Shown: positions 28,716 through 57,915 of the stretch, in pieces
How positions within the stretch are numbered: the first letter of the stretch is position 1
How the letters are laid out: the number at the start of each line of letters is the position of its first letter
From: an uncultured bacterium
Lineage (GTDB): Bacteria; Auribacterota; Auribacteria; Auribacterales; Auribacteraceae
Length of the DNA: 64,000 nt
Assembly (NCBI GenBank): GCA_964451165.1
Contig: CAYVGJ010000001.1
Coordinates: forward strand, 47,071 to 111,070
Direction of reading: 5' to 3'
The notes under the pieces: generated by a model
Told to the model about the DNA's origin: nothing
The model's input: the letters and a program-made list of their open reading frames with translations, nothing else
Databases searched by the model: none
Translations under genes and position numbers: made by a program

Positions 28716-31700
28716 ATGAACTTTAAAGCTCAATCCATATCCGCAATACTTAAGGTATTGCGTACAAAATTGATGTTCAGTCTCGCCTCTGAATCGGCGA
28801 GGTTAATTTTATTGTATCCGGTATTTGTAATATTTGCGGTATTGCCTTTATGCAGTTTGTTCGGGTTGGGAGATTTGTTTATCGTATGGGGTTGCGTTAT
28901 TTGTATTGGATTTTTGGTTTACGCGCAAATAAGCTTTGTTTTTTTGAATTTATCGAAGATTATTTCCTTGCGAGCCACCGCTCGTTGGATTGAATCAGTA
29001 TATCCTTTTTATCATGGAGATTTGATATCGTCTTTCGAGTTTGAGAACAAACCGGATCTCTTTATTGATCTTGGATTTTCAGAACAACTTATCCGGGCTC
29101 ATATTGATAAGGTAAGAGAAACCGTGGATATAAAAACGATTCTGAACTCAGGTTCATTTTATCCGCGCCCGCAACCGGGCAGATTTTTGATATATTTTAC
29201 TGCCGTTCTTGTACTGCCTATGATTGTATTCCCGGATTTTTACGCGGATACGTATTACGGATTATACAGCAAATATTTCGATCCGGTAAAACCTGTACCG
29301 GAGACGCTTGTTGTAAGGCCTGGAGATACCAAAACGGTTTTTGGTTCCACAGTTGATATAAAAGCGGTGATCTTTTCTCAGGCAACTGATGTTGCTAATA
29401 TTTATGTTCGCGGGCAAAATCAGCAATGGGATAAATTCTTGATGAAAAAGGTATCGTCCACATTATATTCCTATTCCATGAAAGATATTAAAGAGAACCG
29501 CCAGTATTATGTACAGTTTGGTTCCATGAAATCTCCGGTATACGAAATTGACGCGATAACACTTCCTATTATATTGCGCCATAGAATTACTTACAGTTAC
29601 CCCGATTATACCGGATTTAGATCACAATCTGAGATACGACAGCAGTTTGACGATATTACCGCCATAAAAGGTACGAAAATAAAATTTGAGATTTTTACCA
29701 ACAACAATATTTCCAGCGCGTTTTTTATTAAAGGGAAACAAAGTGTCCCTTTTGTTCCAAAAACTTCAGATAGTGGTTATGTCGAACTGAAACTGGATGC
29801 GGAATCACCATACAATATAAAAGTTCTGGATAGTTTAGGGCAGGAGAATGAACCGTTAAAATCTTTTAATCTGATACCAATTGAAGATAAACCTCCTTCA
29901 ATTTCAATAATAAGCCCTTCGCAGTACAGTGAGATACCTTCCCAAATGGAAGCGGCTATAATGTATAATGCGTCAGATGATATATCGCTTAAAAAAGCAA
30001 TACTTATTTTTAATGTGTCTTCTGGAGAAGAAAAATCAATTATTATTGAATCCAATATAAATAAGAAAACTGTGGAAAACACATACCGCTGGGATTTAAC
30101 GTCACTTCAGCTTGTACCGGGTGATGAGATTAATTACAAAATACGCGTTTACGATAATTGCGCTCCGCCGGATGGTCCGCATTGGGCACAATCAAAAACA
30201 CAGGTGATGACGTTTCCTTCCATGGCTGAGATATATAAACGGAAAACGGAAGTTTTCGATAAACCTCAGCAAAACCTTGAATCATTGAAGGAGTCGCATG
30301 ATTTGTTGATATCGAAAATAAAAAAAATGGAAGAAAAACTCAGTTATGCCGGACAACTATCCTGGGCAGACAAAAAATCAATTCAGGAAGCAATATCGCA
30401 ACAGCTCAATACACAGCAGTCTATCGACAATACAGCGCAGCAACTTAAAAAAGATATCATTGATAACAATATATCCACTCAGATATTGAAGAATTATACG
30501 GAACTACAATCGATAATGGAATCGCTTATGAGCGAACAGATGAAACAAACGTTACGCGATATTCAGCGTATGCTTGAGCAAACCACATCGTTCCAGCAGA
30601 TGAAAAACAAGCTGGAGATATCCGCTAAAGATATGGAAAAATATAATGAGAATCTCCAGAGAATGTTAAATCTGTTTAAAAAGTTGTCTTTGCACAATAA
30701 ATTAACAGAGTTGCTGGAAGCTACCCGCCAGGCAATTTCTGAACAGGAGAAACTTAACAAGAATTTCAGCGCTTGGCAAAAATCAAAAGAAATATCGCAT
30801 GATCAGGTAAATAAAGAGCTGAATGAGATTGACAAATTTTTAAAATATATGGAAGATTCGCAAAAAACTCTTGCTTCATCCGATCCCGCAGACAATGAAC
30901 TTCGTGATCAGGTGAAATTACTGGAACAGACATATGAAACCGACCGAATGAAAGATCTGCTTGGCATGATGAAACAAAATTTATCTGAAAACAATCCGCA
31001 ATCGGCAGGCGAATCTGGAAACAGGATGCGATCAGCGATGATAAATTACGAAAAGGTTCTGAAGGCGTTGCTGGATAAGTATAAATCGGATAAGATCAAC
31101 ATAAATCAGATTGTAGATATCATTAACCGAATAGAGCGTTTATCCCGTGAAATGGAACAGTTGATTATATCAATGGATACTAATCCGGGAAAAAACACGG
31201 AAAAAAACATCGACCATGCCAGATATATGAATTATATCGAGCGTGAACTTAATCGAACAGGGACTGAGGCAAAAAATCTTGGTAAACAAAGCACCATAAT
31301 AAATTCGGCGTATTACGATCCATTGTTTGATATATCGCAGACCATGGAGAGACAAAACGAGAACGTATTCAAAAGAGGCGATCCGACAGCTTCGCTGATG
31401 ATCAAAAACGAACTTGCTAATACCCGTTTGGTGGCGATCAAGTGGATATTGCTTCTCGAATCGATAAACCGCCAGGGACAACAAGGAGGAAGCGGAAACA
31501 GTGATATGCCTGCAAATATGGATGAATTTTTCGATCAGTTGAAGAAAATGGCTGAAAAGCAATCTTCAATAAACGATAAGACATCCGGTGTTCCGAATAT
31601 GATGCCGGGCTCAAATCCGATGAGCATGCAGAATTATTTAAGCCAGCTTGCCGCTGAACAAAAGATGTTGTCGCAGGCATTAAGCAAACTAAACAAAGCG

Positions 31701-32060
31701 TATCCTGATGCATCAAAACATGTACTTGGTGATTTGAACAATATGGCGGCAGAGATGGAAAAAGCGGCTCAATCGATTAAAAAAGGCGATATTTCATCTG
31801 AACTGATTAATCGGCAGAAGAAGATTCTCACAAGATTGCTTGAATCTGAAAAATCTGTTAAAACCCGGGAAAAAAGTGATAAGAGAGAATCAAAGGAAGG
31901 TAAATTGAATAAGGTTGCGGTATCTCCCGGGGAACTGGATAAAAAACTTTATAAAGTTAAGGAAGATAAAATCAAAAAAGATGGGGTGAAATCGTATATT
32001 CCTCCTGAATATAGAGATATTGTGGATAAATATTTTCAGTATTTAATAGAGGCAAAATAA
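28716..32060 (+). CDS. Large membrane-anchored coiled-coil protein, DUF4175-like
   Basis: N-terminal TMs, LISSFEF, Ig-like region (YPDYT, EDKPPSI, WDLTSLQLVPGDEINY), long Q/E/K coiled coil, C-terminal IPPEYRDIVDKYF. Confidence 0.75.
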   Translation: MNFKAQSISAILKVLRTKLMFSLASESARLILLYPVFVIFAVLPLCSLFGLGDLFIVWGCVICIGFLVYAQISFVFLNLSKIISLRATARWIESVYPFYHGDLISSFEFENKPDLFIDLGFSEQLIRAHIDKVRETVDIKTILNSGSFYPRPQPGRFLIYFTAVLVLPMIVFPDFYADTYYGLYSKYFDPVKPVPETLVVRPGDTKTVFGSTVDIKAVIFSQATDVANIYVRGQNQQWDKFLMKKVSSTLYSYSMKDIKENRQYYVQFGSMKSPVYEIDAITLPIILRHRITYSYPDYTGFRSQSEIRQQFDDITAIKGTKIKFEIFTNNNISSAFFIKGKQSVPFVPKTSDSGYVELKLDAESPYNIKVLDSLGQENEPLKSFNLIPIEDKPPSISIISPSQYSEIPSQMEAAIMYNASDDISLKKAILIFNVSSGEEKSIIIESNINKKTVENTYRWDLTSLQLVPGDEINYKIRVYDNCAPPDGPHWAQSKTQVMTFPSMAEIYKRKTEVFDKPQQNLESLKESHDLLISKIKKMEEKLSYAGQLSWADKKSIQEAISQQLNTQQSIDNTAQQLKKDIIDNNISTQILKNYTELQSIMESLMSEQMKQTLRDIQRMLEQTTSFQQMKNKLEISAKDMEKYNENLQRMLNLFKKLSLHNKLTELLEATRQAISEQEKLNKNFSAWQKSKEISHDQVNKELNEIDKFLKYMEDSQKTLASSDPADNELRDQVKLLEQTYETDRMKDLLGMMKQNLSENNPQSAGESGNRMRSAMINYEKVLKALLDKYKSDKININQIVDIINRIERLSREMEQLIISMDTNPGKNTEKNIDHARYMNYIERELNRTGTEAKNLGKQSTIINSAYYDPLFDISQTMERQNENVFKRGDPTASLMIKNELANTRLVAIKWILLLESINRQGQQGGSGNSDMPANMDEFFDQLKKMAEKQSSINDKTSGVPNMMPGSNPMSMQNYLSQLAAEQKMLSQALSKLNKAYPDASKHVLGDLNNMAAEMEKAAQSIKKGDISSELINRQKKILTRLLESEKSVKTREKSDKRESKEGKLNKVAVSPGELDKKLYKVKEDKIKKDGVKSYIPPEYRDIVDKYFQYLIEAK

Positions 32061-35249: not shown

Positions 35250-36428
35250 TTAAGATGCCTTGTGGGTGTTCATAAACCTTTCGGCGAGCTTAATTCGTCT
35301 GGAAATACTTGGATGATCGTGCAGAAGAAACTCGATTATCGGATTTGGCTGATCGTCCGCCAGGTTCTGGTCAGCGAGTTTTGTCATAGCGGTTATGAAA
35401 TCTTTAGGTAAATTGGTTTGTTTAAGGGCAAAAAGGTCGGCCTGGTTTTCAAGGTATCTGGAATATGTGCTGTTCAAAGGAGACGTAAATATTGAAAATA
35501 AGAACATGCAAAGCAAAAATACCGGGAAACCGGCAATATCAGCAATACCGTTGTAACCAAGATTCATAACGACATCATTGAAAATAAGGCTTATTAAATA
35601 CAATCCGGCGAAAGTTATGAATGCGCCGAAAAATATAAGTTTCCAAATATGTTTATAATAAAAATGACCGAGTTCGTGGGCAAGCACAACCTCTATTTCC
35701 TCATTTGAAAAATTATCGAGGAGAGTATCACCAAGAATTATTCGTTTTGTGTTGCCTAATCCGGTTAAAGCGGCGTTGGCTTTTTTGGTTTTTGTTGATA
35801 GGATAATCTCATAAACGCCTGAAATTTTCGCTTTAACTTTTTCCGCAAGGAAAATCAATTTATTTTTAAGATCTTCATTTTCTAAAGGTTTTAATTTGTA
35901 AAAAAGAGGTATTATAATTACCGGGAATATATTGCTCAGGATAATGCCGAAAAGAAACCACATTGAACCGACCCATAACCACCACGAATGTTTCGCGTAA
36001 ACCAAAAATACGTATAGTACAAGTCCGAGCAAAAGCATAAAAATTACATTTAAAATGTATGATTTGAACCGGTCTTTAATCCACATCCAGAAACTCTCGT
36101 TGGATAACTGGTATTTGTGTTCAAGTAAATATCCGCCATAAAAACTGAACGGTGTAAGAAACAAAAAATAAATTGTTGTTGTGATTGTGATATATATAGA
36201 AACCTGGAGCCAGTAGTTATTTGACCATGACCGAATCAGACCGGCAAGTTGGTTTGAGTAACCGCCGTTTCCACCGGTAAATATAAAAACCAGTAGAACC
36301 ATCAATGTGAAGACAATATCAATCAAAAAAAGAATATTGTGAACTCGCTCATATTGTTTTGCGAGTTTCTTGCGAGTTTCCGGGTTTTCGGGCTCAGGTT
36401 TGGCTGTTATAATCGTCGTATCGGTCAT
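35250..36428 (-). CDS. M48 family (Ste24-like) membrane metallopeptidase
   Basis: KANAALTG, DTLL, AHELGH (HExxH), ENQAD, HDHP....RI. Confidence 0.92.
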   Translation of the reverse strand: MTDTTIITAKPEPENPETRKKLAKQYERVHNILFLIDIVFTLMVLLVFIFTGGNGGYSNQLAGLIRSWSNNYWLQVSIYITITTTIYFLFLTPFSFYGGYLLEHKYQLSNESFWMWIKDRFKSYILNVIFMLLLGLVLYVFLVYAKHSWWLWVGSMWFLFGIILSNIFPVIIIPLFYKLKPLENEDLKNKLIFLAEKVKAKISGVYEIILSTKTKKANAALTGLGNTKRIILGDTLLDNFSNEEIEVVLAHELGHFYYKHIWKLIFFGAFITFAGLYLISLIFNDVVMNLGYNGIADIAGFPVFLLCMFLFSIFTSPLNSTYSRYLENQADLFALKQTNLPKDFITAMTKLADQNLADDQPNPIIEFLLHDHPSISRRIKLAERFMNTHKAS

Positions 36429-36434
36429 TATGTA

Positions 36435-36875
36435 TCATTTCTCCAATTTTTTGCCGGCGAGAGTTAATCTTTTAATAGCCCTTTCAAGAGCGTTTTGCGC
36501 ACGGAAAGTATCTGTTCCGTCTTTCAGCTCGCTAAGAACTTTCTCGGCTTTATCTTTAGCGGTTTTAGCACGCTCCTGATCTATATCGGAAATTTTTTCC
36601 GATGAAGGTGTGAATATAGTTACTACATCGTCTTCCACATGAAGGTATCCGCCGGAAACAAAATAATTGAGTTTGGATTCTTTTGTCCTGGTGCCCTTTG
36701 CTGATTTCTTAACCGGTTCCATGATTATCTCGCATATTCTAAGCCCGGTTATAAAACGGGTATGTCCGGGATAAATCACAAGCTGACCTTCGCTACCTTC
36801 AGCGACTAATTTTGTGCATTCAAAGGATGCGATTTTTTTCTCCGGAGTTAATATATTAATTTTGAGAATAGACAT
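36435..36875 (-). CDS. atpC: ATP synthase F1 epsilon subunit
   Basis: ILTPEK, EGQL..YPGH, SGGY, DID.ERA..A; ATG at 36875 follows an AAGGCGG SD. Confidence 0.9.
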   Translation of the reverse strand: MSILKINILTPEKKIASFECTKLVAEGSEGQLVIYPGHTRFITGLRICEIIMEPVKKSAKGTRTKESKLNYFVSGGYLHVEDDVVTIFTPSSEKISDIDQERAKTAKDKAEKVLSELKDGTDTFRAQNALERAIKRLTLAGKKLEK

Positions 36876-36887
36876 TTTCAATCCGCC

Positions 36888-38294
<1,407 letters not shown>

Positions 38295-38320
38295 CTACCC
38301 TTTAAGCATTTATATTTTGA

Positions 38321-39178
38321 TTACTTATTAAGAGCCTCAGCTCCGCTTACGATTTCTATAATTTCCTTTGTGATTATCGCCTGGCGTGCGCGGTTATACG
38401 CAAGTATCAGGTTATCTATGAGTTCCGACGCGTTTTTGGTTGCAGCGTCCATAGCGTTCATTCGGGTTATCTGTTCAGACAATTCCGATTCAAGGAGTAT
38501 CCTTAACAACTGGATTTCGATATAATGATTAATCAAGTTATCGAATACAGCCGTTGAAGACGGCTCATAAACGAGTTTGCGTGTGGACAAATTATCAGGC
38601 CTATTTTCAAAATATCTCGTTAAAGGAAACATCTGCTCGAGTTTTAGGGATTGTTTACCCATTGACTCAAAATGGGTGTATAAAATATCAATTTTTGTAT
38701 AAGAGCCAACAGCAAAACATCTTGAAATATGACGCGCGAGGCTCGCGCAGATCTTGTAATTAAGTTTACCGAATATATCCGCTTTCTCGCCGATAATTTT
38801 TGCACCTTCAAGTTTATGGAAAAAAGCCTTTCCTTTTTTTCCAATAATGAACAGGTCTGTATCTTTAATTTGTTTCATAGCTGTTCTTATGACATTGGCG
38901 TTGAACCCGCCGCATAATCCTTTATCTGCGGTTACCACGATAAGGAGCCTTTTTTCCTGATCGGTATGTGCGACAAAATATTTATTGTACCTGAGTACAA
39001 CTTCCCATTGGATTCTCCAGAGGAGATTCTCAATGCTTTTTACATAAGCCTGGTTTTCCGATAACCTTGAATAAGCTTTCTTATATTTGGCCGTGGCGAC
39101 CATTTTCATAGCCCGGGTAATCTTGCGGATTTCCTTTACGGATTTAATTCTGTCTTTTACATCTTTTATGTTTTCCAT
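38321..39178 (-). CDS. atpG: ATP synthase F1 gamma subunit
   Basis: KITRAMKMVA, DKGLCGGFN, RMNAM..AT.NA, YNRARQA.IT.EI. Confidence 0.96.
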   Translation of the reverse strand: MENIKDVKDRIKSVKEIRKITRAMKMVATAKYKKAYSRLSENQAYVKSIENLLWRIQWEVVLRYNKYFVAHTDQEKRLLIVVTADKGLCGGFNANVIRTAMKQIKDTDLFIIGKKGKAFFHKLEGAKIIGEKADIFGKLNYKICASLARHISRCFAVGSYTKIDILYTHFESMGKQSLKLEQMFPLTRYFENRPDNLSTRKLVYEPSSTAVFDNLINHYIEIQLLRILLESELSEQITRMNAMDAATKNASELIDNLILAYNRARQAIITKEIIEIVSGAEALNK

Positions 39179-39181
39179 AGA

Positions 39182-40693
39182 TTAACTCAAAACAAATATT
39201 TTTTTGAATTCTTCGATTGCCGATTTTAACTTTTTTTCAATATCTTCAGTGATTTTCTGTTCGGATATAATCGAATCGAGAATATCTTTGTGGTTTTTAT
39301 CCATGAAATCAAGGTATTCGTTTTCAAACCGCCTGCATTGAACTACAGGTACATCATCGAGATAGTTATTAACGCCTACAAAGATGACGGCGATTTGTTT
39401 TTCCACGCTTAATGGTGTGTATTGATTCTGTTTGAGTATTTCAACAAGCCGTTCGCCTTTTTTCAGCTGAGCCTGAGTAGCTTTGTCGAGTTCTGTACCG
39501 AACTGGGCGAAAGCGGCCATTTCTCGGTATTGAGCAAGATCGATACGGAGCGAACCGGCAACTTGTTTCATGGCTTTTATCTGTGCGTTTCCACCTACAC
39601 GGGATACCGACAAACCCACGTTAATAGCTGGGCGAACGCCTGAATAAAAAAGGTTGCTTTCCAGATAAATCTGTCCGTCGGTAATGGAGATGACGTTTGT
39701 CGGGATGTAAGCCGATACGTCTCCCGCCTGTGTTTCGATTATAGGCAACGCTGTAAGTGATCCGCCGCCATGAGACTCATCGAATTTGGATGCTCTTTCA
39801 AGCAACCTTGAATGCAGATAGAAAATATCTCCAGGGTAAGCTTCACGTCCCGGCGGCCTGCGCAGAATCAAAGAGAGCTGGCGGTACGCGACAGCGTGTT
39901 TGGATAAATCGTCGTATATGATAAGAGCGTGTTTTCCGTTATCCATAAAATATTCGCCGATAGCGCAACCGGCATACGGCGCGATATATTGAAGCGGAGC
40001 CGGATCACTTGCCGTCGCGGCAACAACGGTTGTGTATTCCATGGCGCCGTAATCCTCAAGTGTTTTTATTACCTGAGCGACAGTTGATTTTTTCTGTCCG
40101 ATAGCCACATATATACAATAAACGCCTTTGCCTTTCTGGTTTATTATGGTATCAAGGGCAATAGCTGTTTTTCCTGTCTGGCGGTCACCGATGATCAGTT
40201 CGCGTTGACCGCGTCCGATAGGAACCATGGCGTCGATAGCTTTCAAACCTGTCTGGATAGGTTCCTTAACTGGCTGGCGGTCGACAACACCCGGCGCGAT
40301 TCTTTCAATCGGATAGAACTTCTGTGATTTTATAACACCTTTCCCGTCAATCGGTTCACCGATCGCGTTAACAATCCTGCCGCAGAGTCCTTCACCTACA
40401 GGTACCTCAACTATTCTTCCCGTAAGTTTGACGATATCTCCTTCTTTGATCAGGGTATCATCGCCGAGGATAGCTACGCCAACCACGGATTCCTCAAGGT
40501 TCATTACCATTCCTTTAATTCCCTTGCCCATATCGATCAACTCACCTGCCATAGCGTTATCGAGCCCGTAGATAGTGGCTACTCCGTCTCCCACTTGCAG
40601 TACGGTTCCTACATCATCGAGTTTCATTTCTTTCTGGTACTTGGAAATTTTATCTTTAATGAGAGAACTTATCTCATCGGGCTTTATTTGCAT
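39182..40693 (-). CDS. atpA: ATP synthase F1 alpha subunit
   Basis: [24 protein letters not shown]-like GVRPAINVG. Confidence 0.98.
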
Positions 40694-40700
40694 ATATAGT

Positions 40701-41252
40701 TCATCCTTCCTGTTTTAAAGCTTCTTGTAAACGTCTTAAATCTCCTTTTACGGAGTAATCTATAATATGATTGTCGAGATGAATAAGTATACCGCCTATT
40801 ATTTCTGGTTTGAGCTCATATTTTAATTCGACAATTTGATTGTACCGTTTTTCAAGCAACGATTTGAGCTGTTTTTTCGTATCCGGCCCTAATTCCTGTA
40901 CACTGAATATAGTACCGCTAATAATGCCCATTTCCTGTTTTGCCAACTTTCTAACAAAAAAGAGTATTTTTTCAAGAAGCTTGATTCTGCCGTTTTCAAT
41001 TAAAATAAACAAAAAATTGATAATTTCATTTTCAATACCGGCTTTTTTGAGTATCGATTCGATCATGTCTTTACGCTGAGCCAATTTAATAAGAGGATTA
41101 ACCAAAAAATCAATCAAAATCTGGTTTTGCTTAAAAATATCGCAAATCTTTTCAAGCTGATCAAGAAAACCGGAAATATTCTTTTTTTCTTTAGCCGCTT
41201 TGACAAAAGAAAAAGCGTAAGTACGTGAGATTTTTAGTTCTGTCAGTTCCAT
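40701..41252 (-). CDS. atpH: ATP synthase delta subunit
   Basis: Position; YA..F, FL.NP, PEIIGGI, IDYS. Confidence 0.9.
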
Positions 41253-41728
41253 TTTTCAATCTTTTTCAGAGCGTCGTTGATAATTTTTTGTTGATCCTGC
41301 GGTTTAATTTCTCGTTCAAGAATTTTCTGGGCAATATCCATGGCCACATCAGCTAAATTGTTTTGTAGTTCCGCTTTAGCTTTTTCTAATTCAATTTCAA
41401 GAGATTTTTTCCCGTTGACAATTATCGCGTTGTTTTCTTTTTCAGCGTTTGCGATAATAATATGAGCGTCGCTTTCCGCGCGTTTATGTGCCATTCGCAC
41501 AATTTCCGCGGCTTCTTTTTTAGCGTTTAAAAGTTCTGTTTCCTGTAAAACTTTCAAATCGGTGGCTTCCTGTTGGAGCCTGGAAGCATCAGCCATATCC
41601 ATCTCAATCCCTTGCGCGCGCCGGTCGAGATAATCGAGTATTTTTGAAAACAGAAACTTGTTCAGCAACCATAATAGTATGGCGAAATTAATCACCTGAA
41701 TGATCATTGTAAAACTGATTTCTACCAA
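41243..41728 (-). CDS. atpF: ATP synthase Fo b subunit
   Basis: QVINFAILLWLL..FLF..I...LD.R followed by a coiled coil; TTG start. Confidence 0.92.
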   Translation of the reverse strand: MVEISFTMIIQVINFAILLWLLNKFLFSKILDYLDRRAQGIEMDMADASRLQQEATDLKVLQETELLNAKKEAAEIVRMAHKRAESDAHIIIANAEKENNAIIVNGKKSLEIELEKAKAELQNNLADVAMDIAQKILEREIKPQDQQKIINDALKKIEKWN

Positions 41729-41762
41729 AGGAACTCACCCCTTCCAAAAGAATAAGCGATTA

Positions 41763-42017
41763 TTATTTTACAACAAAAAGCATGAGGAGCGCGATAACAA
41801 GAGAATATATACCTGTTGATTCCGAAACCGCCTGACCGATAAGCATAGTTCTTAAAATAAGGTTAGCGTTCTGTGGTTCACGGGCAACACCTGAACATGC
41901 TTGTCCTGCGGCATAACCTTCGCCGACGCCCGGTCCGATAGCTCCGAATCCCATACAAATACCGGCGCCAACCATTGCCGCCGCCCTGATTAAATCCGCA
42001 CCTGAAAAATCAACCAT
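41763..42017 (-). CDS. atpE: ATP synthase Fo c subunit, single hairpin, Na+-type motif
   Basis: GPGVGEGYAAG ... MLIGQAVSESTGIY. Confidence 0.95.
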   Translation of the reverse strand: MVDFSGADLIRAAAMVGAGICMGFGAIGPGVGEGYAAGQACSGVAREPQNANLILRTMLIGQAVSESTGIYSLVIALLMLFVVK

Positions 42018-42040
42018 ATTTTTGTCTCCTTTTTTAAACC

Positions 42041-42538
42041 TTAAACCATTATTAACAAAAGTGCTATTACCAAAGCGTAAATGCTGGTCGATTGTGAAAC
42101 CGCCTGGCCGACGAGCATCATTCGCATGATTACCGCTTCTTTATCCGGGTTAGCGCTAACGCCTTCGCATGCGCCAGCGTTTGCAAGACCGGCCCCTATA
42201 CCCGGGCCGAATGCGCCGCTACCCATACACAACCCTGCGCTGATGGCGGCGAAAAAAGTAATAAATTCTTTGCCTTTTAACGGCGTAAACAGCAACATAA
42301 TAGATACGATAAGCGAAAATAAAGCCGGTGATTCCGTTACCGCTTGTCCGATAAGCATTGTTTTTAATATATTACCTGAAACGTAAGGCTGGCGTGAAAT
42401 TCCTTTACACCCTTCGCCGGCGGCCAAACCTATTCCGTAAGCCGCTCCGATAGCGCCTAATCCCATTGATAATCCAGCTCCCAGAAAAGCTCCAAATCTT
42501 GCTAAATCTGCATCCGGCATAAAAAAATCCTTATTCAC
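42041..42538 (-). CDS. atpE: ATP synthase Fo c subunit, duplicated double-hairpin form
   Basis: Two c-like halves: MLIGQAVTESPALF and MLVGQAVSQSTSIY. Confidence 0.9.
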   Translation of the reverse strand: MNKDFFMPDADLARFGAFLGAGLSMGLGAIGAAYGIGLAAGEGCKGISRQPYVSGNILKTMLIGQAVTESPALFSLIVSIMLLFTPLKGKEFITFFAAISAGLCMGSGAFGPGIGAGLANAGACEGVSANPDKEAVIMRMMLVGQAVSQSTSIYALVIALLLIMV

Positions 42539-43421
42539 TAACCATTAAAGAAACATAAACCAGAGCCAGCATGGAAAACACAAATGCCTGGATGGTTCCA
42601 CCGAACAACCCGAAAAAGGCGTTCAAAAATATCGGCGGGCCGATAGGAAACCCGATTGGCCAGCCTGTTAACATTTTAAAAAACGAGATGCTCAATCCCG
42701 ATAAAACCAGAAAAATAATGGCTCCGCCGAATATATTGCCGAAAAGACGGAACGAGTGTGATATCGTTTTGCCGAACTCGCCGATTATATTCAGGAATCC
42801 CATTGGAATATTGGGTATGGTAACTTTGCCTATTTGGAACGAAGGTTCGAAAAATTCTTTTAAATATTTAACAGGGCCTCTGATAATAATACCGCTTATA
42901 TGAGCCACAAAGAAACACATTAAACCGAAACCGAGTGTTGTATTCAGGTCTCTGGTTGGTTCCTCAAGGACCATCCATTTTGGGAAAACGCCGTCAACGA
43001 TCAGCCAGAAATTGGGAATAATACCAAGCCAGTTGGAACATAAAATAAAAATAAACAGGGTAGCTACGAACGGCAAATATTTTCTGCCGAGTTTTTCGCC
43101 CAGAACATCTTTGCATAAAGTATCGAACATGGTGACAAAAAGTTCGCCAACCATTTGTAGCCTGCCGGGTTTCGGTTTGAGTTTGCGGGTCATAAAGTAA
43201 CTGGATATAACCAAAAACGCCATGATAAGCCATGTGTTTAAAACAGTGACGATATTTATCCCGTTGATCGGAATTTTGAAACCCATGATTGAATTGATCT
43301 TGATTCGGGGTTCTCCGATACCTTCGGATAAATCGACATGGGTAAAATAGGTTAAAGAAAACTCTATTATAAGGATAATCGCAATCCAAAATATTATTTT
43401 TAGTATCTTATTTTTTTTCAT
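42531..43421 (-). CDS. atpB: ATP synthase Fo a subunit
   Basis: PTRDLNTT, SHSFRLFGN, IQAFVFSML. Start placed at the ATG at 43421 overlapping the upstream gene end; the ORF extends to 43442. Confidence 0.93.
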   Translation of the reverse strand: MKKNKILKIIFWIAIILIIEFSLTYFTHVDLSEGIGEPRIKINSIMGFKIPINGINIVTVLNTWLIMAFLVISSYFMTRKLKPKPGRLQMVGELFVTMFDTLCKDVLGEKLGRKYLPFVATLFIFILCSNWLGIIPNFWLIVDGVFPKWMVLEEPTRDLNTTLGFGLMCFFVAHISGIIIRGPVKYLKEFFEPSFQIGKVTIPNIPMGFLNIIGEFGKTISHSFRLFGNIFGGAIIFLVLSGLSISFFKMLTGWPIGFPIGPPIFLNAFFGLFGGTIQAFVFSMLALVYVSLMVSE

Positions 43422-43854
43422 TACCGAACCCCATGAATACATATTCTATATATAATATTATCTGGATTAGAAACAATCCGAGAATAAAAGTGCTGAGAGT
43501 GAAAATTTTCACGGTAACTGCGATGATAAAAGCTATTGATAAGATAATATACCTTATGAAATATCCGAAAATCAATCTTTTTTGTCCGGTTGACTTTTTT
43601 TTTGTTCTTAATACGTCGTTTGCCATCATGGTTACGCCTTTTCCCATCAGGAAAAAGTTTATCCATCCCATGAAAGCACCGAAAATCAGTCCGGGAATAT
43701 AAAATTTCATGTCAGTGATCCAGAAAACGCAACTCATCAAAGAACAGACAAACAATATCTTTTTCAATAAAGATAAAGTTACCGGTACGATAGACGGATC
43801 AATAGCGAATAAATCTTTTAAAGTTTCAAGTCTTTTTTTATCAATCTGTAACAC
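43408..43854 (-). CDS. atpI: ATP synthase subunit I-like membrane protein
   Basis: Four TMs, 'FIRYIIL' motif, position directly before atpB. Confidence 0.7.
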   Translation of the reverse strand: MLQIDKKRLETLKDLFAIDPSIVPVTLSLLKKILFVCSLMSCVFWITDMKFYIPGLIFGAFMGWINFFLMGKGVTMMANDVLRTKKKSTGQKRLIFGYFIRYIILSIAFIIAVTVKIFTLSTFILGLFLIQIILYIEYVFMGFGNEKK

Positions 43855-44099
43855 TGGAAAAACCCTGCTATGATTCCTGCGATTAGAAATATTATAAGAA
43901 AAAAATGATTGCTTCCAAATATTTTATCAAGCCATAATCCTAAAAAAAAACCCGCGAGTATACATAATACCATTGTAAAGCCCAAATTGCCTGCGAAAAA
44001 AATTATCGACATAAGTTCTTTTGTATCTGAGCTTTTTTTCTGCTGATTATCTGACCGGGTAATCTTATCTTGAGTTTTATTGTCGGATTCTGTCTGCAA
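43818..44099 (-). CDS. AtpZ/AtpI family small membrane protein
   Basis: GFFLGLWLDKIFG...LIAGIIAGF two-TM pattern, first gene of the atp operon; start uncertain. Confidence 0.75.
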   Translation of the reverse strand: MQTESDNKTQDKITRSDNQQKKSSDTKELMSIIFFAGNLGFTMVLCILAGFFLGLWLDKIFGSNHFFLIIFLIAGIIAGFFQCYRLIKKDLKL

Positions 44100-44934
44100 T
44101 TCGGTCGAACTCCTCTTGCGATTCGAAATGAATTATTATTCTGCCTTTGTCAGAAGATGCGAATTTTATTTCCACTGGTGTGTTCAGTTTTTCTTTCAGG
44201 TTCAATGTCAGTTTGTATGATTTATCTTCGATAGCCGGTTCGAGTAAAAGTTGTTTTTCTTCTTTTGGGTCATTGATATCCTGTACCAGCTTTTCAGTTT
44301 GGCGGACAGTTAAGTTTTTTCGTATTACTTTCTCGAATATTCTCATTTGATCTTCAGTCGACGCTACCCCGAGTATAACTTTCGCGTGCCCTACGGATAA
44401 GGAACCGTCGATTAGTGCGTTCTGGATATGATCAGGCAATTTAAGAAGCCGCATGGAATTAGTGATCGAGGTTCTGCTTCGCCCTACGGTTTTCGCCACG
44501 GCATCCTGGGATAACCTGAACTCATTGCATAAGGTCATATAACCTTTTGCTTCTTCAATAGGATTCAGATCGTCGCGCTGTATATTTTCAATTAAAGCGA
44601 GTTCAAGAGATTTCTGATCAGTCACGTTTTTAACTATAGCTGGAATTTCGTCAAGCCCTATTCGTTTTGCTGCGATATATCGCCGTTCGCCAGCGATAAT
44701 TTCATAACCTTCAGGCGTTTTGCGCACTATTATGGGTTGAATTACACCGTGTTCGCGGATAGAGTTTTCCAGATCGTTTAATTTTTCTTCAATAAATGTG
44801 TTTCTAGGCTGATATTTGTTGGACACAATTTCGGTTAGGGCGATTTTTCGAACGAATTCCCTATCGAGATCTGTAATAGGTATTAGAGAGCTGAGCCCGC
44901 GTCCGAGAGCGGATTTTTTCTGTGATTCATCCAT
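44077..44934 (-). CDS. parB: Chromosome partitioning protein ParB/Spo0J
   Basis: LGRGLSSL, QPR, GVIQP, IAGERR, ALIENIQRDDLNPIEEA, HTH. Confidence 0.96.
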   Translation of the reverse strand: MDESQKKSALGRGLSSLIPITDLDREFVRKIALTEIVSNKYQPRNTFIEEKLNDLENSIREHGVIQPIIVRKTPEGYEIIAGERRYIAAKRIGLDEIPAIVKNVTDQKSLELALIENIQRDDLNPIEEAKGYMTLCNEFRLSQDAVAKTVGRSRTSITNSMRLLKLPDHIQNALIDGSLSVGHAKVILGVASTEDQMRIFEKVIRKNLTVRQTEKLVQDINDPKEEKQLLLEPAIEDKSYKLTLNLKEKLNTPVEIKFASSDKGRIIIHFESQEEFDRIADRIRQ

Positions 44935-47817: not shown

Positions 47818-48338
47818 AAAAGTTCTCCATATTATCGAGCAATATAATTAAGTATAAATAATAGATCAAGTTATCATGATCAAAAAAATATAGTTTTATT
47901 CCCCGAATGGCAAAATATGGTTAATATCCTTATTAATAAATAATTTCGCCGATAATGAAATGTATCTGGAATCGCTCTATTGCACAAATTCCCTTATATT
48001 TTGCGTACGGAAAACACAAATTTAATTAAATTTACGGAAAAATACAATAAAAATCGGGTATGTCTGGATTGTCTAATGAAAAATATTTGATATCCGGAGA
48101 GATTTTTATATAATTTAATATCCAAGAGTTGAAAAAGGTTGTATGTCTGTGTTTTTTTCTTTAAATATTTTGTTATCGCGAAAAAATAATGGAATATTGG
48201 CAATAACCTTTCAATGGTCAATAAGTAAATAACGTTTCACAATGTTTTTTAATTGGTTTGATTATATGAACTGCTGGTTTTTTTTTCACATCTTGAATAA
48301 AGATTCAAATCTAACCCAAGTGAGCGCAGGTGATAATG

Positions 48339-50882
48339 ATGTCTGATTATATTGACATAAATCAAATTTCCGGAATATCCGAACTTGAAGCGGCGGAAAA
48401 ACTGAAGCGAGAAGGATACAACGAAATACCATCCTCCGAGAAGAGAAATTTTCTTAAACTTCTTATCGAGATAATAAAAGAACCGATGTTTATTCTTCTT
48501 ATACTATGCGATTCTGTTTATTTTTTTCTCGGAGACATTCAGGAAGGAATAATGCTTCTCGGGTTTGTGTTTGTGGTAATCGGGATTACTTTTTATCAGG
48601 AAAATAAGACGGAGCGCGCGCTGGATGCTCTTCGCAATCTTTCAAGCCCTCGTGCCCTTGTTATACGCGACGGGCAACACAGACGTATACCGGGAAGAGA
48701 AGTTGTGACAGGCGATTTCATTATCTTATCGGAAGGCGACAGGGTACCTGCGGATTCAATAGTGATATCAAGCAGTAATTTGCTTGTTGATGAATCGTTG
48801 TTAACAGGCGAATCGATGCCTGTCAGAAAAGAAGCAGATCCCAACGCGAAAGATATGGAAATACCGGGCGGTGAAGGAAAACCTTTTGTTTATTCAAGTA
48901 CGCTGGTTGTGGCTGGAAAAGGTGTTGCTGTTGTGAAACATACCGGGATTAATACTGAAATCGGCAAAATCGGTAAATCGCTTCAGGAACTCGAAACGGA
49001 AAAAACCCAGCTTCAAACGGAAACAGACGGGTTGGTAAAAAATTTCGCTTTTGGTGCGGTGTTCTTATCTGTGCTTGTGGTTGTTTTGTATGGGTTAACC
49101 CGCGATAAATGGCTGGAAGGTTTTTTCGCGGGAATTACGCTGGCTATGTCGATATTGCCTGAAGAGTTTCCGGTTGTGCTCACAATATTTCTTGCTCTTG
49201 GTGCATGGAGAATGTCGTATAGAAAAGTGCTTACCCGCCGTCAGCATGCTATTCAGGCATTGGGTTCGGTTACTGTTTTATGCGTTGACAAAACAGGAAC
49301 TCTTACCGTCAACAAAATGGCGATAAAAAAAATATTCAGTAACGGCAAGTTTTTTGAAGTGGCAAACCATAATGATTTGCCTGAAGAGTTTCACGAACTG
49401 ATCGAATTCGGGATTCTTGCCAGCCAGAAAGAACCTTTCGACCCGATGGAGAAAGCGCTGATAAAACTTTGTGACAGGATGCTTGCGGGAACAGAACATA
49501 TTCATGACAACTGGACACTGGTTGAAGAGTATCCATTGTCGAAAAATCTGCTGGCGGTATCGCATGTATGGAAATCGCCCGATAAAAAAGATTATGTGAT
49601 TGCCGCCAAAGGCGCACCGGAAGCAATTTGGGATTTATGCCACCTGTCTGAACCGGAAATAAAAAAACAGAATGAAAAGTTGATTCAAATGGCATCCGAA
49701 GGATTAAGGGTAATTGCTGTTGCCGAGGCGTCAATGAAACAGGCTCCTTTGCCTGATTCACAGCACGAATTCACGTTCAAGTTTTTAGGGCTTCTCGGGT
49801 TTGAGGATCCGGTCAGAGATACGGTGCCAGATTCGATACGCGAATGTCATGAAGCCGGAATAAGGGTAGTGATGATAACCGGCGATTATTCTATAACTGC
49901 TCAGAAAATCGCGACCGAAATAGGTATGAACGGTTCAAATAGAATTGTTACCGGATCGGATTTAAGCAAAATGACCGACGAAGATTTGAATAAGATCATA
50001 AAAGACGTGAATATATTTGCCAGAGTTGTGCCTGAACAAAAACTGAGGATTGTCAATGCGCTTAAATCAGCGGGCGAGATTGTGGTGATGACTGGTGATG
50101 GAGTCAATGATGCCCCGGCGCTGAAATCCGCCCATATCGGTGTTGCTATGGGACTTCGCGGAACCGATGTCGCCAGGGAAGCTTCTTCAATTGTGGTACT
50201 CGATGACGATTTCTCAACTATTGTCGATGGAATTCGAATGGGACGCAGAATTTATGACAATATCAGAAAAGCTATGGCTTACGTTCTCGCCGTTCATATA
50301 CCAATAGCCGGGATTACATTGCTGGCTGTTATATTTAAATGGCCTCTTATACTCCTGCCGGTACATATATTATTTCTCGAGCTGATAATTGATCCGGCAT
50401 GTTCAATCGTGTTTGAGGCTGAAGAAGAAGAACCAAACGTAATGAAACGGTTGCCGAGAAACCCGAAAGAAAAAATATTCAATAGAAATACCATTATCTT
50501 TAGTACTCTTCAGGGATTGGTTGTGCTGATTATAATAGCGGCGATATTTAAAATCGGGCTGTATCGGGGTCATAGTGAAACAGAATCGAGGGCGCTCTGT
50601 TTCACTACTTTGATAATTGCAAATTTATGTTTAATATTAACAAATCGTTCATGGTCTAAAGTTATTTTCTCCATTTTAAAAACAAAAAATAAAGCGTTAT
50701 GGTATGTTATATCATTTACTATTGCATTTCTTATGATAGTTCTTTTTAATCCGTTTCTTCGAAATCTATTTAAATTTGATATTCTTCATTTTGTAGATAT
50801 ATTGTTCTGTGCCACAGCCGGTATACTTAGCATCATGTGGTTTGAGGTAACTAAATTCATCCACAGGCCTGCAGGGAATTGA
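48339..50882 (+). CDS. Cation-translocating P-type ATPase (P2-like, Ca2+/Mg2+/other cation; substrate unknown)
   Basis: LTGES, PEEFP, DKTGT phosphorylation site, KGAPE, MITGD, TGDGVNDAPAL. Start placed at 48339 (AGGTGA SD); the ORF extends to 48330. Confidence 0.92.
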   Translation: MSDYIDINQISGISELEAAEKLKREGYNEIPSSEKRNFLKLLIEIIKEPMFILLILCDSVYFFLGDIQEGIMLLGFVFVVIGITFYQENKTERALDALRNLSSPRALVIRDGQHRRIPGREVVTGDFIILSEGDRVPADSIVISSSNLLVDESLLTGESMPVRKEADPNAKDMEIPGGEGKPFVYSSTLVVAGKGVAVVKHTGINTEIGKIGKSLQELETEKTQLQTETDGLVKNFAFGAVFLSVLVVVLYGLTRDKWLEGFFAGITLAMSILPEEFPVVLTIFLALGAWRMSYRKVLTRRQHAIQALGSVTVLCVDKTGTLTVNKMAIKKIFSNGKFFEVANHNDLPEEFHELIEFGILASQKEPFDPMEKALIKLCDRMLAGTEHIHDNWTLVEEYPLSKNLLAVSHVWKSPDKKDYVIAAKGAPEAIWDLCHLSEPEIKKQNEKLIQMASEGLRVIAVAEASMKQAPLPDSQHEFTFKFLGLLGFEDPVRDTVPDSIRECHEAGIRVVMITGDYSITAQKIATEIGMNGSNRIVTGSDLSKMTDEDLNKIIKDVNIFARVVPEQKLRIVNALKSAGEIVVMTGDGVNDAPALKSAHIGVAMGLRGTDVAREASSIVVLDDDFSTIVDGIRMGRRIYDNIRKAMAYVLAVHIPIAGITLLAVIFKWPLILLPVHILFLELIIDPACSIVFEAEEEEPNVMKRLPRNPKEKIFNRNTIIFSTLQGLVVLIIIAAIFKIGLYRGHSETESRALCFTTLIIANLCLILTNRSWSKVIFSILKTKNKALWYVISFTIAFLMIVLFNPFLRNLFKFDILHFVDILFCATAGILSIMWFEVTKFIHRPAGN

Positions 50883-54654: not shown

Positions 54655-55464
54655 ATGGGCGACTTATCAAGAATCAATACCAATGTAACCGCATTGCGGT
54701 CTTTCCAGACATTAACCAACATAAATTCACGGCTTGTTAAAACACAAGAGAGAATTTCTACCGGCCGGATGGTCAACAGGGCATCGGATAGTCCATCAGA
54801 TTATTATATTACCAGAATGATGAGTAAAGAAATCGACGCTACGAAACGGAAAAACGCTAATATCGAGCGCGGTATTAATTTCCTGCAGACAAACGATAGT
54901 CGCCTTGCGCAGGTTGTGAACATATTGATCGAGATGAGTGATATGGCAAACCAGGCGAACTCAATCGCAGTGACTTCAGCCGAAAAACAGGCAATTCAGC
55001 AGGATTTACAACAATTATCGCATGAAATCGAAAATATCCTTGAAAGTGGTGTTTCCGTGAAATTGTACAGTGGATTTACACTTGCGGGGTTGACCAACGT
55101 AAAGCTGACAGGCAATCTGTGTATCAATCCTCTGCAGACACTTACTATAGATGGTACAAATATTAACGTAACTGGTTCTCTAACGGATATAGATAACGCG
55201 ATAAGCAATATAAATAAAGCACTGGATGTGGTTTTGCGCGATGAAGAGAGGCTTGGTTCATACATAAAAAGGCTGGATACCGAGTATCAGCTAAATGAGA
55301 ATGAGGAAATAAACCTTCGCGCATCGCTAAGTTCCATTCAGGATTCGGATCTGGCGGCGGAACAAATGGAACTGACAAACCTGTCGATACTGCAACAGGC
55401 GGCTTTATCAATGCTTGCTCAGGCAAACAGCGCGCCGAACGCGATTATGGTTCTGTTCCAATAA
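54655..55464 (+). CDS. fliC: Flagellin 1 (minimal D0/D1 flagellin, 269 aa)
   Basis: RINTNV N-terminus, ISTG..VNRASD, IQDSDLA...LT..SILQQA..SMLAQAN C-terminus. Confidence 0.9.
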   Translation: MGDLSRINTNVTALRSFQTLTNINSRLVKTQERISTGRMVNRASDSPSDYYITRMMSKEIDATKRKNANIERGINFLQTNDSRLAQVVNILIEMSDMANQANSIAVTSAEKQAIQQDLQQLSHEIENILESGVSVKLYSGFTLAGLTNVKLTGNLCINPLQTLTIDGTNINVTGSLTDIDNAISNINKALDVVLRDEERLGSYIKRLDTEYQLNENEEINLRASLSSIQDSDLAAEQMELTNLSILQQAALSMLAQANSAPNAIMVLFQ

Positions 55465-55608
55465 TAAACAAAAGCGGACAGGGATAGTTCGCTCAAACCT
55501 TAACAGGGAGGTAGTTAAAGATGTACCTTGAAAACACTTGAGATCTGAATTAAAGATTTTGAGCGGAATCTATCCCGAAAAACAATACGAATTAAACAAA
55601 CAGAAAAA

Positions 55609-55792
55609 CCGCGAACAGGGAAGTTCTCGGGAAAATTAAAACAGGGAGGTTATCATGAAGTGGATCAAATTATGAATTTATAAAATGAACCCGGTTTAAT
55701 AAAAATAGATAAAAAAGTTAGTAAATTAAGCCATAATATGATTGTTGTCAGGGAAGACGGCAATTGAGAAATTAACAAAATCAAGGAGGATT
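55609..55792 (+). promoter_or_regulatory. CsrA-type GGA-loop hairpins upstream of flagellin 2
   Basis: ACAGGGAAGT (55615), ACAGGGAGGT (55641), TCAGGGAAGA (55748, 9-bp stem), TCAAGGAGGA (55781, SD); another site at 55503. Confidence 0.7.
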
Positions 55793-55797
55793 TAAAA

Positions 55798-56607
55798 ATG
55801 GGTGATCTATCAAGAATAAACACTAATGTATCGGCTTTAAGAAGTTTTCAAACTTTAACAAATATTAATACGAGGCTTGTAAAGAGCCAGGAACAAATAT
55901 CTACCGGTAAAGTTGTCAACAGGGCATCGGATAGTCCATCGGATTATTATATAACGCGAATGCTGGACACAAATATAAATTCGGTAAAACGGCAGAATTC
56001 AAATATTGAGCGCGGTATAAATTTTCTGCAGACCAACGACAGCCGTCTTGCCCAGGTAGCCAATATCCTGATTGAGATGAGTGATCTAGCCAATCAATCG
56101 AATTCAATAGCGGTTACGTCGGCTGAGAAACAAGCTATACAACAGGATCTAACCCAACTTGCTGAAGAAATCGAAGCGATTTTGCAAAGCGGTGTAAGCG
56201 CCAAACTTTATGCCGGATTTACTTTGGGCGGTTTAGAGAACGTAAAACTTACAGGGAACCTAACCGCTAATCCGCTGGGTAGTTTATCCTTGAATGGGAC
56301 AAACCTGAATGTTACCGGCTCGATGGTGGATATAGAAACAACCATAATGAATATTGATTCCGCATTGAATGTAATATTGCGCGATGAGGAACGGCTTGGA
56401 TCCTTTATAAAAAGGCTTGAGACTGAATATCAGATGAACGATGTGGAGGAAGTCAATTTGCGAGCATCTTTAAGCTCAATTCAGGATACCGACCTGGCAT
56501 CCGAGCAGATGGAATTGACTAAGCTGTCAATACTTCAGCAGGCATCGTTATCGATGTTGGCTCAGGCAAACTCCGCGCCGCAATCGGTAATGCAATTGTT
56601 CTCATAA
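55798..56607 (+). CDS. fliC: Flagellin 2 (269 aa)
   Basis: Same flagellin termini; paralog of flagellin 1. Confidence 0.9.
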   Translation: MGDLSRINTNVSALRSFQTLTNINTRLVKSQEQISTGKVVNRASDSPSDYYITRMLDTNINSVKRQNSNIERGINFLQTNDSRLAQVANILIEMSDLANQSNSIAVTSAEKQAIQQDLTQLAEEIEAILQSGVSAKLYAGFTLGGLENVKLTGNLTANPLGSLSLNGTNLNVTGSMVDIETTIMNIDSALNVILRDEERLGSFIKRLETEYQMNDVEEVNLRASLSSIQDTDLASEQMELTKLSILQQASLSMLAQANSAPQSVMQLFS

Positions 56608-56839
56608 GATTAGTTAGGAAAATTTGATGAGTGAAATTCACCAGAATAAGGCAAAGATAAAAATTGATAGCAAAAGTTGAATTAAACAAATAAGGCAAGA
56701 TTAAATGAACATAAAAGAAAGACCAAACAGGAGGATCATGAAAGAGTATCAACGAAGAGAAAATTAGTCTAAACAGGGAAAGTTAAAACTATAACGCAAC
56801 AAAAAAATGATCAATGTTAAAACCATGGAGGGAAAAAAC

Positions 56840-57649: not shown

Positions 57650-57664
57650 TATAAAAAATTTATG

Positions 57665-57705
57665 GTTGCGGCTGGTGGATAGTTTATACATCCTTCGGCC
57701 GCAAC
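57665..57705 (+). other. Long GC-rich hairpin after flagellin 3 (copy at 58741-58781), no U-tract
   Basis: GTTGCGGC / GCCGCAAC outer stem with an inner GGAT / ATCC stem. Confidence 0.5.
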
Positions 57706-57915
57706 GGAGAACGATGATGAAACTGTAAAAGTATTATATAACTACAAATTCGATGGATACTTGGAAAGGAATGGTGACTACTGATTGAGAATATGTGTGT
57801 ATAAAAGAAAATCTGTTTGGATTGGGAAAAATATAAAGGCTTAAATGATGATTGTGTAAACATCTTAAAATAAAATAATTATAAAAACAGATAAACATAT
57901 TTAAGGAGAAAACAA

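Follow-up and report, generated by a model that had tools for sequence, protein, structure and literature searches.

The window, our term throughout for the whole 64,000-nt stretch of DNA analyzed (contig CAYVGJ010000001.1, positions 47,071 to 111,070), comes from an uncultured bacterium of the Auribacteraceae and contains, on the minus strand at 36435-44099, a complete operon for an F1Fo ATP synthase, arranged as atpZ-I-B-E1-E2-F-H-A-G-D-C. Two of its genes encode rotor subunit c: atpE1, a long form with two hairpins (c1), and atpE2, a single-hairpin form of 84 amino acids (aa) (c2). c1 has glutamate at the ion-binding position of its first hairpin and glutamine at that of its second, and our verdict is that it is a convergent variant of the F/V-hybrid rotor known from Acetobacterium woodii. 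The genes of the operon, with the evidence that assigns them, are as follows (ORF, open reading frame).

43818..44099, minus strand: atpZ / ATPase_gene1 (PF09527, TIGR02230)
43408..43854, minus strand: atpI (ATP-synt_I; PF03899)
42531..43442, minus strand: atpB, Fo subunit a (PF00119, E=1.3e-48)
42041..42520 (GTG alternative 42538), minus strand: atpE1, subunit c1, the long c with two hairpins and four transmembrane helices (two PF00137 domains)
41763..42017, minus strand: atpE2, 84-aa single-hairpin c subunit c2 (PF00137, motif residues)
41243..41728, minus strand: atpF, subunit b (PF00430)
40701..41252, minus strand: atpH, subunit delta (OSCP) (ORF; OSCP called in the identical locus L049)
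39182..40693, minus strand: atpA, subunit alpha (ORF; homologous loci)
38321..39178, minus strand: atpG, subunit gamma (ORF; homologous loci)
36888..38288, minus strand: atpD, subunit beta (ORF; homologous loci)
36435..36881, minus strand: atpC, subunit epsilon (PF02823, PF00401)

The c1 ORF at 42041-42538 on the minus strand reads 165 aa from a GTG start. That GTG, at 42538, falls within the last codons of atpB, and an ATG at 42520 is preceded, 7 nt upstream, by an AAGGA Shine-Dalgarno (SD) sequence; this ATG is also the start chosen by gene callers and the one found in an 89%-identical relative (P0002). For these reasons c1 is probably 159 aa long, its key residues then being E63 and Q143. 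Residue numbers of c1 follow the 165-aa form unless the 159-aa form is stated (E69 = E63, Q149 = Q143). The hairpins and key codons below were placed by mapping c1 onto the columns of the 84-aa c.

42284..42514, minus strand: hairpin 1 of c1 (residues 9-85)
42044..42277, minus strand: hairpin 2 of c1 (residues 88-165)
42332..42334, minus strand: Glu69 codon, gaa (Glu63 in the 159-aa numbering)
42092..42094, minus strand: Gln149 codon, caa (Gln143 in the 159-aa numbering), which replaces the ion-binding Glu
42431..42433, minus strand: Ile36 codon, ata, at the position of Gln32 in Ilyobacter tartaricus and Glu32 in Fusobacterium nucleatum

The outer helix reads AVTESPALF in hairpin 1 and AVSQSTSIY in hairpin 2. 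At the seven columns that form the ion site, the three hairpins encoded by the window have the following residues.

Site columns (I. tartaricus/F. nucleatum numbering): Q/E32, V63, A64, E65, S66, T67, Y70
c1 hairpin 1: I36, V67, T68, E69, S70, P71, F74
c1 hairpin 2: A116, V147, S148, Q149, S150, T151, Y154
c2: E33, V64, S65, E66, S67, T68, Y71

E69 is the only carboxylate at the site columns of c1; hairpin 2 is without one, so not every hairpin has a carboxylate. Where I. tartaricus has Gln32, hairpin 1 has Ile36 and hairpin 2 has Ala116; hairpin 2 keeps S150, T151 and Y154. A sequence-only reading of this DNA had described a double-hairpin c with E69 in hairpin 1 and Q149 in hairpin 2 beside an 84-aa c, and had noted that hairpin 1 lacks the polar ligand of the inner helix; the residues and codons, and the column mapping of Ile36, bear out both descriptions.

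c1 matched PF00137 as two domains with 100.7 bits (cut-off 24) and TIGR01260 with 73 bits (cut-off 43.95). When modeled with AlphaFold2 from an alignment with 60 homologues, it yielded a mean predicted local distance difference test (pLDDT) score of 95.6 and a fold of four helices, interrupted precisely at E63 and Q143 of the 159-aa form; a model from the single sequence scored 57 and was discarded. The closest structural match found by Foldseek was A. woodii c1 (PDB 4bem_J), with a template modeling (TM) score of 0.94 and a root mean square deviation of 1.3 Å, a near-identical fold. V-type proteolipids gave TM scores of 0.7-0.8. The best sequence match in the PDB was likewise 4bem_J (E=6e-25).

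c1 is neither a sequencing error nor a chance feature. The same split c genes with the same E and Q residues occur in independent assemblies (L049, L004-L006), and no variant of either c gene was found among metagenome and metatranscriptome contigs from activated sludge, wastewater and biofilm. Compared over 36400-44150 with public contigs of runs X1, X2, X4 and X10, the window shows strain differences that cluster in atpD and atpA, with 18 substitutions between 37494 and 40469, and zero differences in atpB, atpE1, atpE2 and atpF. The E...Q pattern is also kept in relatives at 49-59% identity (L007, P0143, L025, P0167). We rejected the possibility that c1 and c2 are the two parts of a broken triple-hairpin gene, or arise from a frameshift artefact: triple-hairpin relatives have a separate c2 as well, and both relatives and independent assemblies divide the two genes at the same place.

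The partner subunit c2 carries the full two-carboxylate Na+ motif described for F. nucleatum, E32/E65/S66/T67/Y70, where the adjacent subunit supplies Ser66 and Val63 (PMC3692424). E33, V64, E66, S67, T68 and Y71 of c2 correspond to E32, V63, E65, S66, T67 and Y70 of the F. nucleatum c11 ring (PDB 3ZK1), and the two proteins are 62% identical over the hairpin core. F. nucleatum differs in having a homomeric ring, no long c and an inner helix that is one residue shorter. Among the single-hairpin c subunits of the loci we fetched, 30 of 38 read EVSESTY at the seven columns, and the partner genes of long c subunits vary at most at the A64 column (EVAESTY, EVTESTY).

A family of long c subunits in F-type operons

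A search of 5.8 billion proteins returned 1,050 matches, and most of the best 120 were about 240 aa long, the length of three hairpins. In an exhaustive HMMER search, 1.84 billion cluster representatives yielded 326 matches at E<=1e-10, with lengths that cluster near 160, 240, 320 and 410-435 aa. Judged by these matches, the window c1 is a member of a widespread long-c family with hundreds of cluster representatives. Scanning the GTDB species representatives yielded 42 loci in which 36 long c genes could be read. A single-hairpin c gene lies directly downstream of 33 of them; the remaining three sit at contig ends, the sequence stopping at the long gene or shortly after it.

The long subunits differ in their number of hairpins. 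Two-hairpin forms occur in a UBP3 metagenome-assembled genome (MAG), in Mcinerneyibacteriota, in a Bacillota MAG and in several unclassified MAGs; three-hairpin forms in Cloacimonadota, Verrucomicrobiota and a Deltaproteobacteria MAG; four-hairpin forms in Coatesbacteria, Desulfarculia and Desulfobacteraceae; and a five-hairpin form in Dethiosulfatarculus sandiegensis. Deferrisoma camini and a Desulfococcaceae MAG have a three-hairpin gene followed by an 82-aa c gene at the same operon position as in the window. The lineage thus spans UBP3, Mcinerneyibacteriota, Cloacimonadota, Coatesbacteria, Verrucomicrobiota, Desulfobacterota, Deferrisoma and others, mostly uncultured. In the literature we searched, which did not take in the review on hybrid-rotor distribution by Brandt & Muller (2015), we found no paper describing F-type c subunits with three to five hairpins.

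We built hidden Markov models (HMMs) for four classes of hairpin in the family (first, middle, last and single), leaving out the clade of the window. Hairpin 1 of the window c1 scored best as a first hairpin (111 bits, versus 91-101 for the other classes), and hairpin 2 scored best as a last hairpin (111 bits, versus 82 for the first class). With a gene between atpB and a single-hairpin atpE, hairpins of the first and last classes and no deletion in the inner helix, c1 has the features that mark this family. It shares with the three- to five-hairpin forms the operon position, the inner-helix length, an EVSESTY partner c2, a first hairpin with Glu and degenerate Ser/Thr/Tyr positions, and a last hairpin with these positions intact. 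Unlike those forms, it is without middle hairpins, its first hairpin being followed directly by its last.

Among two-hairpin forms, the residues at the two ion-binding positions are most often E then Q (EQ 17, EE 9, QQ 7, EG 3, QE 2). The closest clade of the window c1 consists of P0002 (89% identical), L007 (the UBP3 MAG, 59%), P0143, L025 and P0167, which share TESPF in hairpin 1, QSTY in hairpin 2 and a hydrophobic residue (I/L/V/M) at the inner-ligand position. This last trait sets the clade apart from the three- to five-hairpin forms, in which the ligand position of the hairpin 1 inner helix is Glu.

Several other multi-hairpin c subunits appeared in the same searches. Five-hairpin F-type long c subunits of 405-435 aa are encoded by L019 at 5965-7182 (D. 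sandiegensis), P0122-P0124 and P0159. Most have one or two Glu sites (E-x-x-x-E in L019, E-x-x-x-x in P0122 and P0124); P0123 has Glu in all five hairpins, and each five-hairpin example from an L locus is followed by a single-hairpin c. A second large group, with four hairpins (P0171-P0268, many of about 315-321 aa, 26-33% identical to the query), repeatedly shows an acidic residue, Glu or Asp, in every hairpin except the second, where Gln or now and then Met stands, as in QLxET, SLIQTPF, LIIETPF, SLIDTxY. The c-type proteins P0190 (524 aa), P0191 (968 aa) and P0240 (1,139 aa) are longer still; each of their 7 to 10 or more hairpins has Glu, and they are presumably of the Methanopyrus-like fused-ring type.

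Relation to Acetobacterium woodii c1 and to V/A-type subunits

The sequence-only reading had taken the order of Glu and Gln in the window c1 to be the reverse of that in A. woodii c1. The alignment with 4bem_J contradicts this: there the A. woodii protein has Glu in its first hairpin (AETSGIF) and Gln in its second (AQTTGIY). Published descriptions agree: in c1 of A. woodii and Clostridium aceticum, it is the second hairpin that has lost its carboxylate, Q...ET being followed by Q...QT (PMC7911925). That other order is the one found in true V/A-type c subunits, in which the ion site of the four-helix c lies in hairpin 2 (PMC13564433).

The window c1 and the c1 of A. woodii and C. aceticum are therefore alike in site order, and also in being four-helix double hairpins whose gene lies in an F-type operon and precedes that of a single-hairpin c. 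The A. woodii protein moreover has Phe in place of Tyr70 in hairpin 1 and keeps Tyr in hairpin 2, as does the window c1. Despite this likeness, the two proteins are just 36-38% identical. Hairpin 1 of A. woodii c1 keeps a Gln32-type ligand (Q...ET) where the window has Ile36, so the live hairpin of the window c1 lacks a complete Na+ motif. Their partners differ as well, A. woodii c2/3 using Gln32 and the window c2 using Glu33, the two-carboxylate type.

Three lines of evidence separate the window family from A. woodii c1. In the class HMMs, both A. woodii hairpins score best as single hairpins. In a neighbor-joining tree of 78 hairpins, hairpins 1 and 2 of A. woodii c1 group with A. woodii c2 (bootstrap 60), and the A. 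woodii hairpins group with the c subunits of Acetobacterium fimetarium and F. nucleatum (bootstrap 75); hairpin 2 of the window pairs with that of L007 (bootstrap 62), and deep nodes are weak. Lastly, the inner helix is one residue longer in all 468 long-c hairpins and all 34 partner c2 subunits, and shorter in both hairpins of A. woodii c1, in A. woodii c2, in the c subunits of A. fimetarium and F. nucleatum, and in P0225, an A. woodii-like c1. A. fimetarium (L040) has no c1, only two identical 82-aa c genes. Each c1 thus resembles the single c of its own lineage; the tree, the class HMMs and the indel all draw the same line, and the design with Glu first and Gln last has arisen on at least two occasions. 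The earlier proposal of independent evolution holds to this extent, that the window c1 arose apart from A. woodii c1 and is not its ortholog; as a family member with the same site arrangement, it does not mark a singular event.

V/A-type proteolipids (Enterococcus hirae NtpK, yeast and human V-ATPase c, and the A1Ao c of Eubacterium limosum and E. callanderi) resemble the window c1 in their duplicated hairpin, their one carboxylate per four helices and, as the structural scores above indicate, a similar fold. In these proteins the carboxylate is in hairpin 2 (TM4) and the live site lies inside the subunit (PMC3604715, PMC2359735, PMC13564433), whereas the window c1 has its carboxylate in hairpin 1, a dead site inside the subunit and a live site between subunits, and its operon is F-type. 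PDB matches of c1 to V-type proteins were weak (E>=1.8e-5, versus 5e-13 for F-type c), and the NCBIfam V-type K models scored far below their cut-offs for the window c subunits. An N-ATPase was considered and rejected: the N-ATPase model for c, TIGR03322, gave 88 and 65 bits (cut-off 130.85), the one for subunit a, TIGR03306, gave 92.8 bits (cut-off 302.1), and a delta gene, which N-ATPase operons lack, is present.

Ion sites of c1 and proposed working of the rotor

In rings of single-hairpin subunits, Glu32 or Gln32 and Glu65 of a site come from one subunit, and the Val63 carbonyl and Ser66 from the adjacent one; Tyr70 and Thr67 are likewise part of the site (PMC3692424). In the K ring the site lies within one subunit (PMC3604715). 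Glu139/Gln110 of E. hirae are the counterparts of Glu65A/Gln32A of I. tartaricus, and Thr64/Leu61 those of Ser66B/Val63B (PMC2359735). From their numbers, we infer that Glu139 and Gln110 lie in hairpin 2 and Thr64 and Leu61 in hairpin 1. The Ser/Thr/Tyr side of a site therefore comes from the hairpin that precedes the Glu-bearing one. We call the Gln/Glu32 and Glu65 positions of one hairpin the A side, and Val63, Ser66, Thr67 and Tyr70 of the preceding hairpin the B side.

Covariation among the 272 complete multi-hairpin c subunits collected in this analysis agrees with the literature mapping and, together with it, shows this geometry. Of 375 hairpins followed by one without Glu, 373 are degenerate at the T67/Y70 positions, and 31 of 33 intact B sides precede a Glu hairpin (odds ratio 33, p=6e-13). 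The association persists among representatives at 70% identity (odds ratio 13.5, p=1e-5), and the opposite geometry is anti-correlated (odds ratio 0.15). In our first set of 195 sequences, 143 of 157 long subunits have an S/T-T-Y B side in their last hairpin, also where the ion-binding residue of that hairpin is Gln, a pattern to be expected only if the hairpin adjoins a working site of the next subunit in a ring. The same rule provides a simple way to count the live sites of any fused c from its sequence: a hairpin retains the Ser/Thr/Tyr side only where a live Glu follows.

Applied to c1, this geometry changes the reading of hairpin 1. Because the Ser/Thr/Tyr side comes from the preceding hairpin, P71 and F74 are predicted to line the dead Q149/A116 site inside c1, away from E69, and Ile36 would be the only defect of the Glu69 site. 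The sequence-only reading had regarded the Glu site as atypical on account of these P and F residues, an interpretation that the geometry and the covariation do not sustain and that the Phe of A. woodii hairpin 1 also speaks against. Little is left of the view that c1 belongs to a unique, independently evolved rotor with an order reverse to that of A. woodii and a Glu site crippled by P71 and F74. Its residues are as that view describes and it is no A. woodii ortholog, but the view is refuted on site order (4bem_J, PMC7911925), E then Q is the commonest arrangement among two-hairpin forms, P71 and F74 belong to the Gln site, and there are hundreds of relatives; we regard it as extremely improbable. 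What stands from the earlier reading, besides the separate origin and the missing inner-helix ligand, is the heteromeric rotor; one of the A. woodii kind is the best reading of a four-helix, one-carboxylate c beside a single-hairpin c in an F-type operon.

We propose that the ring is probably mixed, with many c2 subunits that carry full Na+ sites and one or a few c1 subunits, each of which costs at least one coupling ion per turn. Most of the ring would be c2, each copy giving a complete two-carboxylate Na+ site. Each c1 would fill two hairpin positions and carry at most one ion. Inside it, A116 and Q149 of hairpin 2 and S70, P71 and F74 of hairpin 1 would form a dead site that, lacking a carboxylate and polar ligands, would take no ion past the stator arginine (in subunit a, the Arg within SFRLFGN). 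Between the preceding subunit, with its intact S/T/Y, and hairpin 1 of c1, with E69 and Ile36, the site would keep its carboxylate and lack its inner ligand; it would be expected to bind Na+ more weakly and to favor H+, a preference for which c-ring selectivity calculations are the background. S150, T151 and Y154 of hairpin 2 would complete a fully normal site with the next c2. Each c1 would thus mean at least one fewer ion per turn and a lower ion/ATP ratio, as in A. woodii. All characterized F-type Na+ rings have 11 hairpins (PMC3692424); a ring of this size with one c1 would have ten live sites. The conservation of the c1-c2 gene pair across phyla, with a nearly invariant EVSESTY partner, is consistent with the mixed ring.

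Rings could instead consist largely or entirely of c1, and carry about half the ions per turn in the manner of V-type rings; the enzyme would then serve above all to pump Na+ or H+ at the expense of ATP, not as a synthase. The neighboring genes for c1 and c2 are each present in one copy with an SD of their own, and the STY of c1 hairpin 2 could equally complete the E69 site of another c1. The known precedent points the other way, the A. woodii ring being a hybrid Na+ rotor of nine c2/3 and one c1 in an enzyme that synthesizes ATP at about 90 mV (PMC9171764). In addition, c2 is far more conserved than c1, has the stronger SD (AAGGAG) and has the less structured start region, and the delta, epsilon and b subunits encoded by the operon in the 64-kb window are typical of synthases. 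The low-depth metatranscriptome assembly X10 covers c2 and atpF and little of c1 and atpB, which is weak evidence in the same direction. On this balance we consider c1-rich rings unlikely.

Alternatively, c1 might be non-working, as a decaying paralogue or as an assembly or regulatory protein, and the mature ring a plain homo-oligomer of c2. The cytoplasmic loop of hairpin 2 (42161-42169, minus strand) reads ANP and has lost the Arg of the conserved R(Q/N)P; hairpin 1 has RQP and c2 has REP. The same loop reads INP in P0002, RNP in L007 and P0143, and RTP in L025 and P0167, and the alteration suggests a relaxed contact with gamma/epsilon. In deletion experiments, A. woodii rings without c1 reportedly can still assemble and function, which would make c1 dispensable for a functional ring. 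Against a non-working c1 stand its strongly conserved sequence, its confidently predicted four-helix fold and a gene slot between atpB and atpE2 that is conserved across many phyla. Moreover, the pattern of ligands kept and lost makes sense only in a ring beside active sites, and the A. woodii c1 is present in the crystallized ring (4bem). A c1 without a place in the working ring is thus more improbable still than a ring dominated by it.

The mixed ring could also serve an enzyme that is H+-coupled despite its Na+-type motif, with c1 merely lowering the H+/ATP ratio. Calls of ion specificity from motifs are fallible: the ATP synthases of Mycobacterium tuberculosis and Streptococcus pneumoniae are H+-coupled. 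Both organisms share the two-carboxylate motif (PMC3692424), and Ile36 would make the Glu site of c1 H+-like. However, c2 has every Na+ ligand of F. nucleatum (E32, V63, E65, S66, T67, Y70), and these are nearly invariant in the 34 partner c2 subunits, which leaves H+ coupling doubtful, if somewhat easier to credit than the two preceding alternatives.

Several points weigh against a mixed Na+ rotor. Sequence does not reveal whether c1 enters the ring or in what ratio to c2, and Na+ coupling is inferred from the motif alone. Both c genes have a good ribosome-binding site, and the folding of their start regions differs too little (-6.3 versus -2.2 kcal/mol) to serve as evidence on stoichiometry. 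The covariation counts are phylogenetically non-independent. Metatranscriptome contigs that cover the operon count in favor of the mixed rotor, but they are contigs only and may include DNA, and their depth gives no c1:c2 ratio. The expected effect of a hydrophobic residue at position 32 is based on reported mutagenesis of Gln32 in Propionigenium modestum.

The number of live sites in a c ring sets the ions used per ATP and thereby the lowest ion-motive force at which ATP can be made. A. woodii has so far been the textbook case, and nearly the only F-type one, of an ion number lowered by a dead site. A separate origin of the same order, with two to five hairpins in many lineages, suggests that tuning of this gear ratio is a general adaptation. 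We tentatively extend this to a fuller account, possible as a whole, in which the window c1 would be the shortest form of an apparently undescribed lineage of two- to five-hairpin subunits, independent of A. woodii c1, that silence 1 to 4 sites per subunit and thereby fix the ion/ATP gear ratio genetically, in graded steps; in the clade of the window, the result would be a Na+ ring with one H+-preferring site. The wider long-c family is a more interesting lead than the window protein itself.

Surroundings of the operon and other features of the window

Subunit a is 296-303 aa long, and its N terminus extends about 70 aa beyond that of 224-aa homologues (Deferrisoma, Desulfococcaceae); the extension is common to L004-L007. 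Upstream of the operon lie parB, parA and mnmG, a neighborhood also found in D. camini. About 4 kb from the operon, a P-type cation ATPase (E1-E2, Cation_ATPase_N/C) is encoded at 48330-50882 on the plus strand, and this gene may be linked to Na+/cation homeostasis.

Matching contigs place the organism in activated sludge, wastewater and biofilm. Lipid A genes in the window indicate two membranes, and a flavodiiron-type protein is also encoded. The nearest GTDB species representative among the loci fetched is the UBP3 MAG, with an alpha subunit 78.6% identical to that of the window. An Rfam scan of the whole window gave no match, so no rRNA or tRNA was found in it.

At 54655-62985 on the plus strand, eight tandem paralogous ORFs of 268-280 aa (starts at 54655, 55798, 56807, 57916, 58992, 60047, 61112 and 62164) form an unusually long flagellin array; the first and last, which were the two tested, are flagellins (Flagellin_N and Flagellin_C). 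Also on the plus strand are a giant ORF of 4,825 aa at 7196-21673, with no Pfam match at E<=1e-5, and an ORF of 1,114 aa at 28716-32060, with no Pfam match. At 197-1961 on the minus strand, neighboring genes encode two paralogous HDOD/HD-domain proteins, 283 and 286 aa long.

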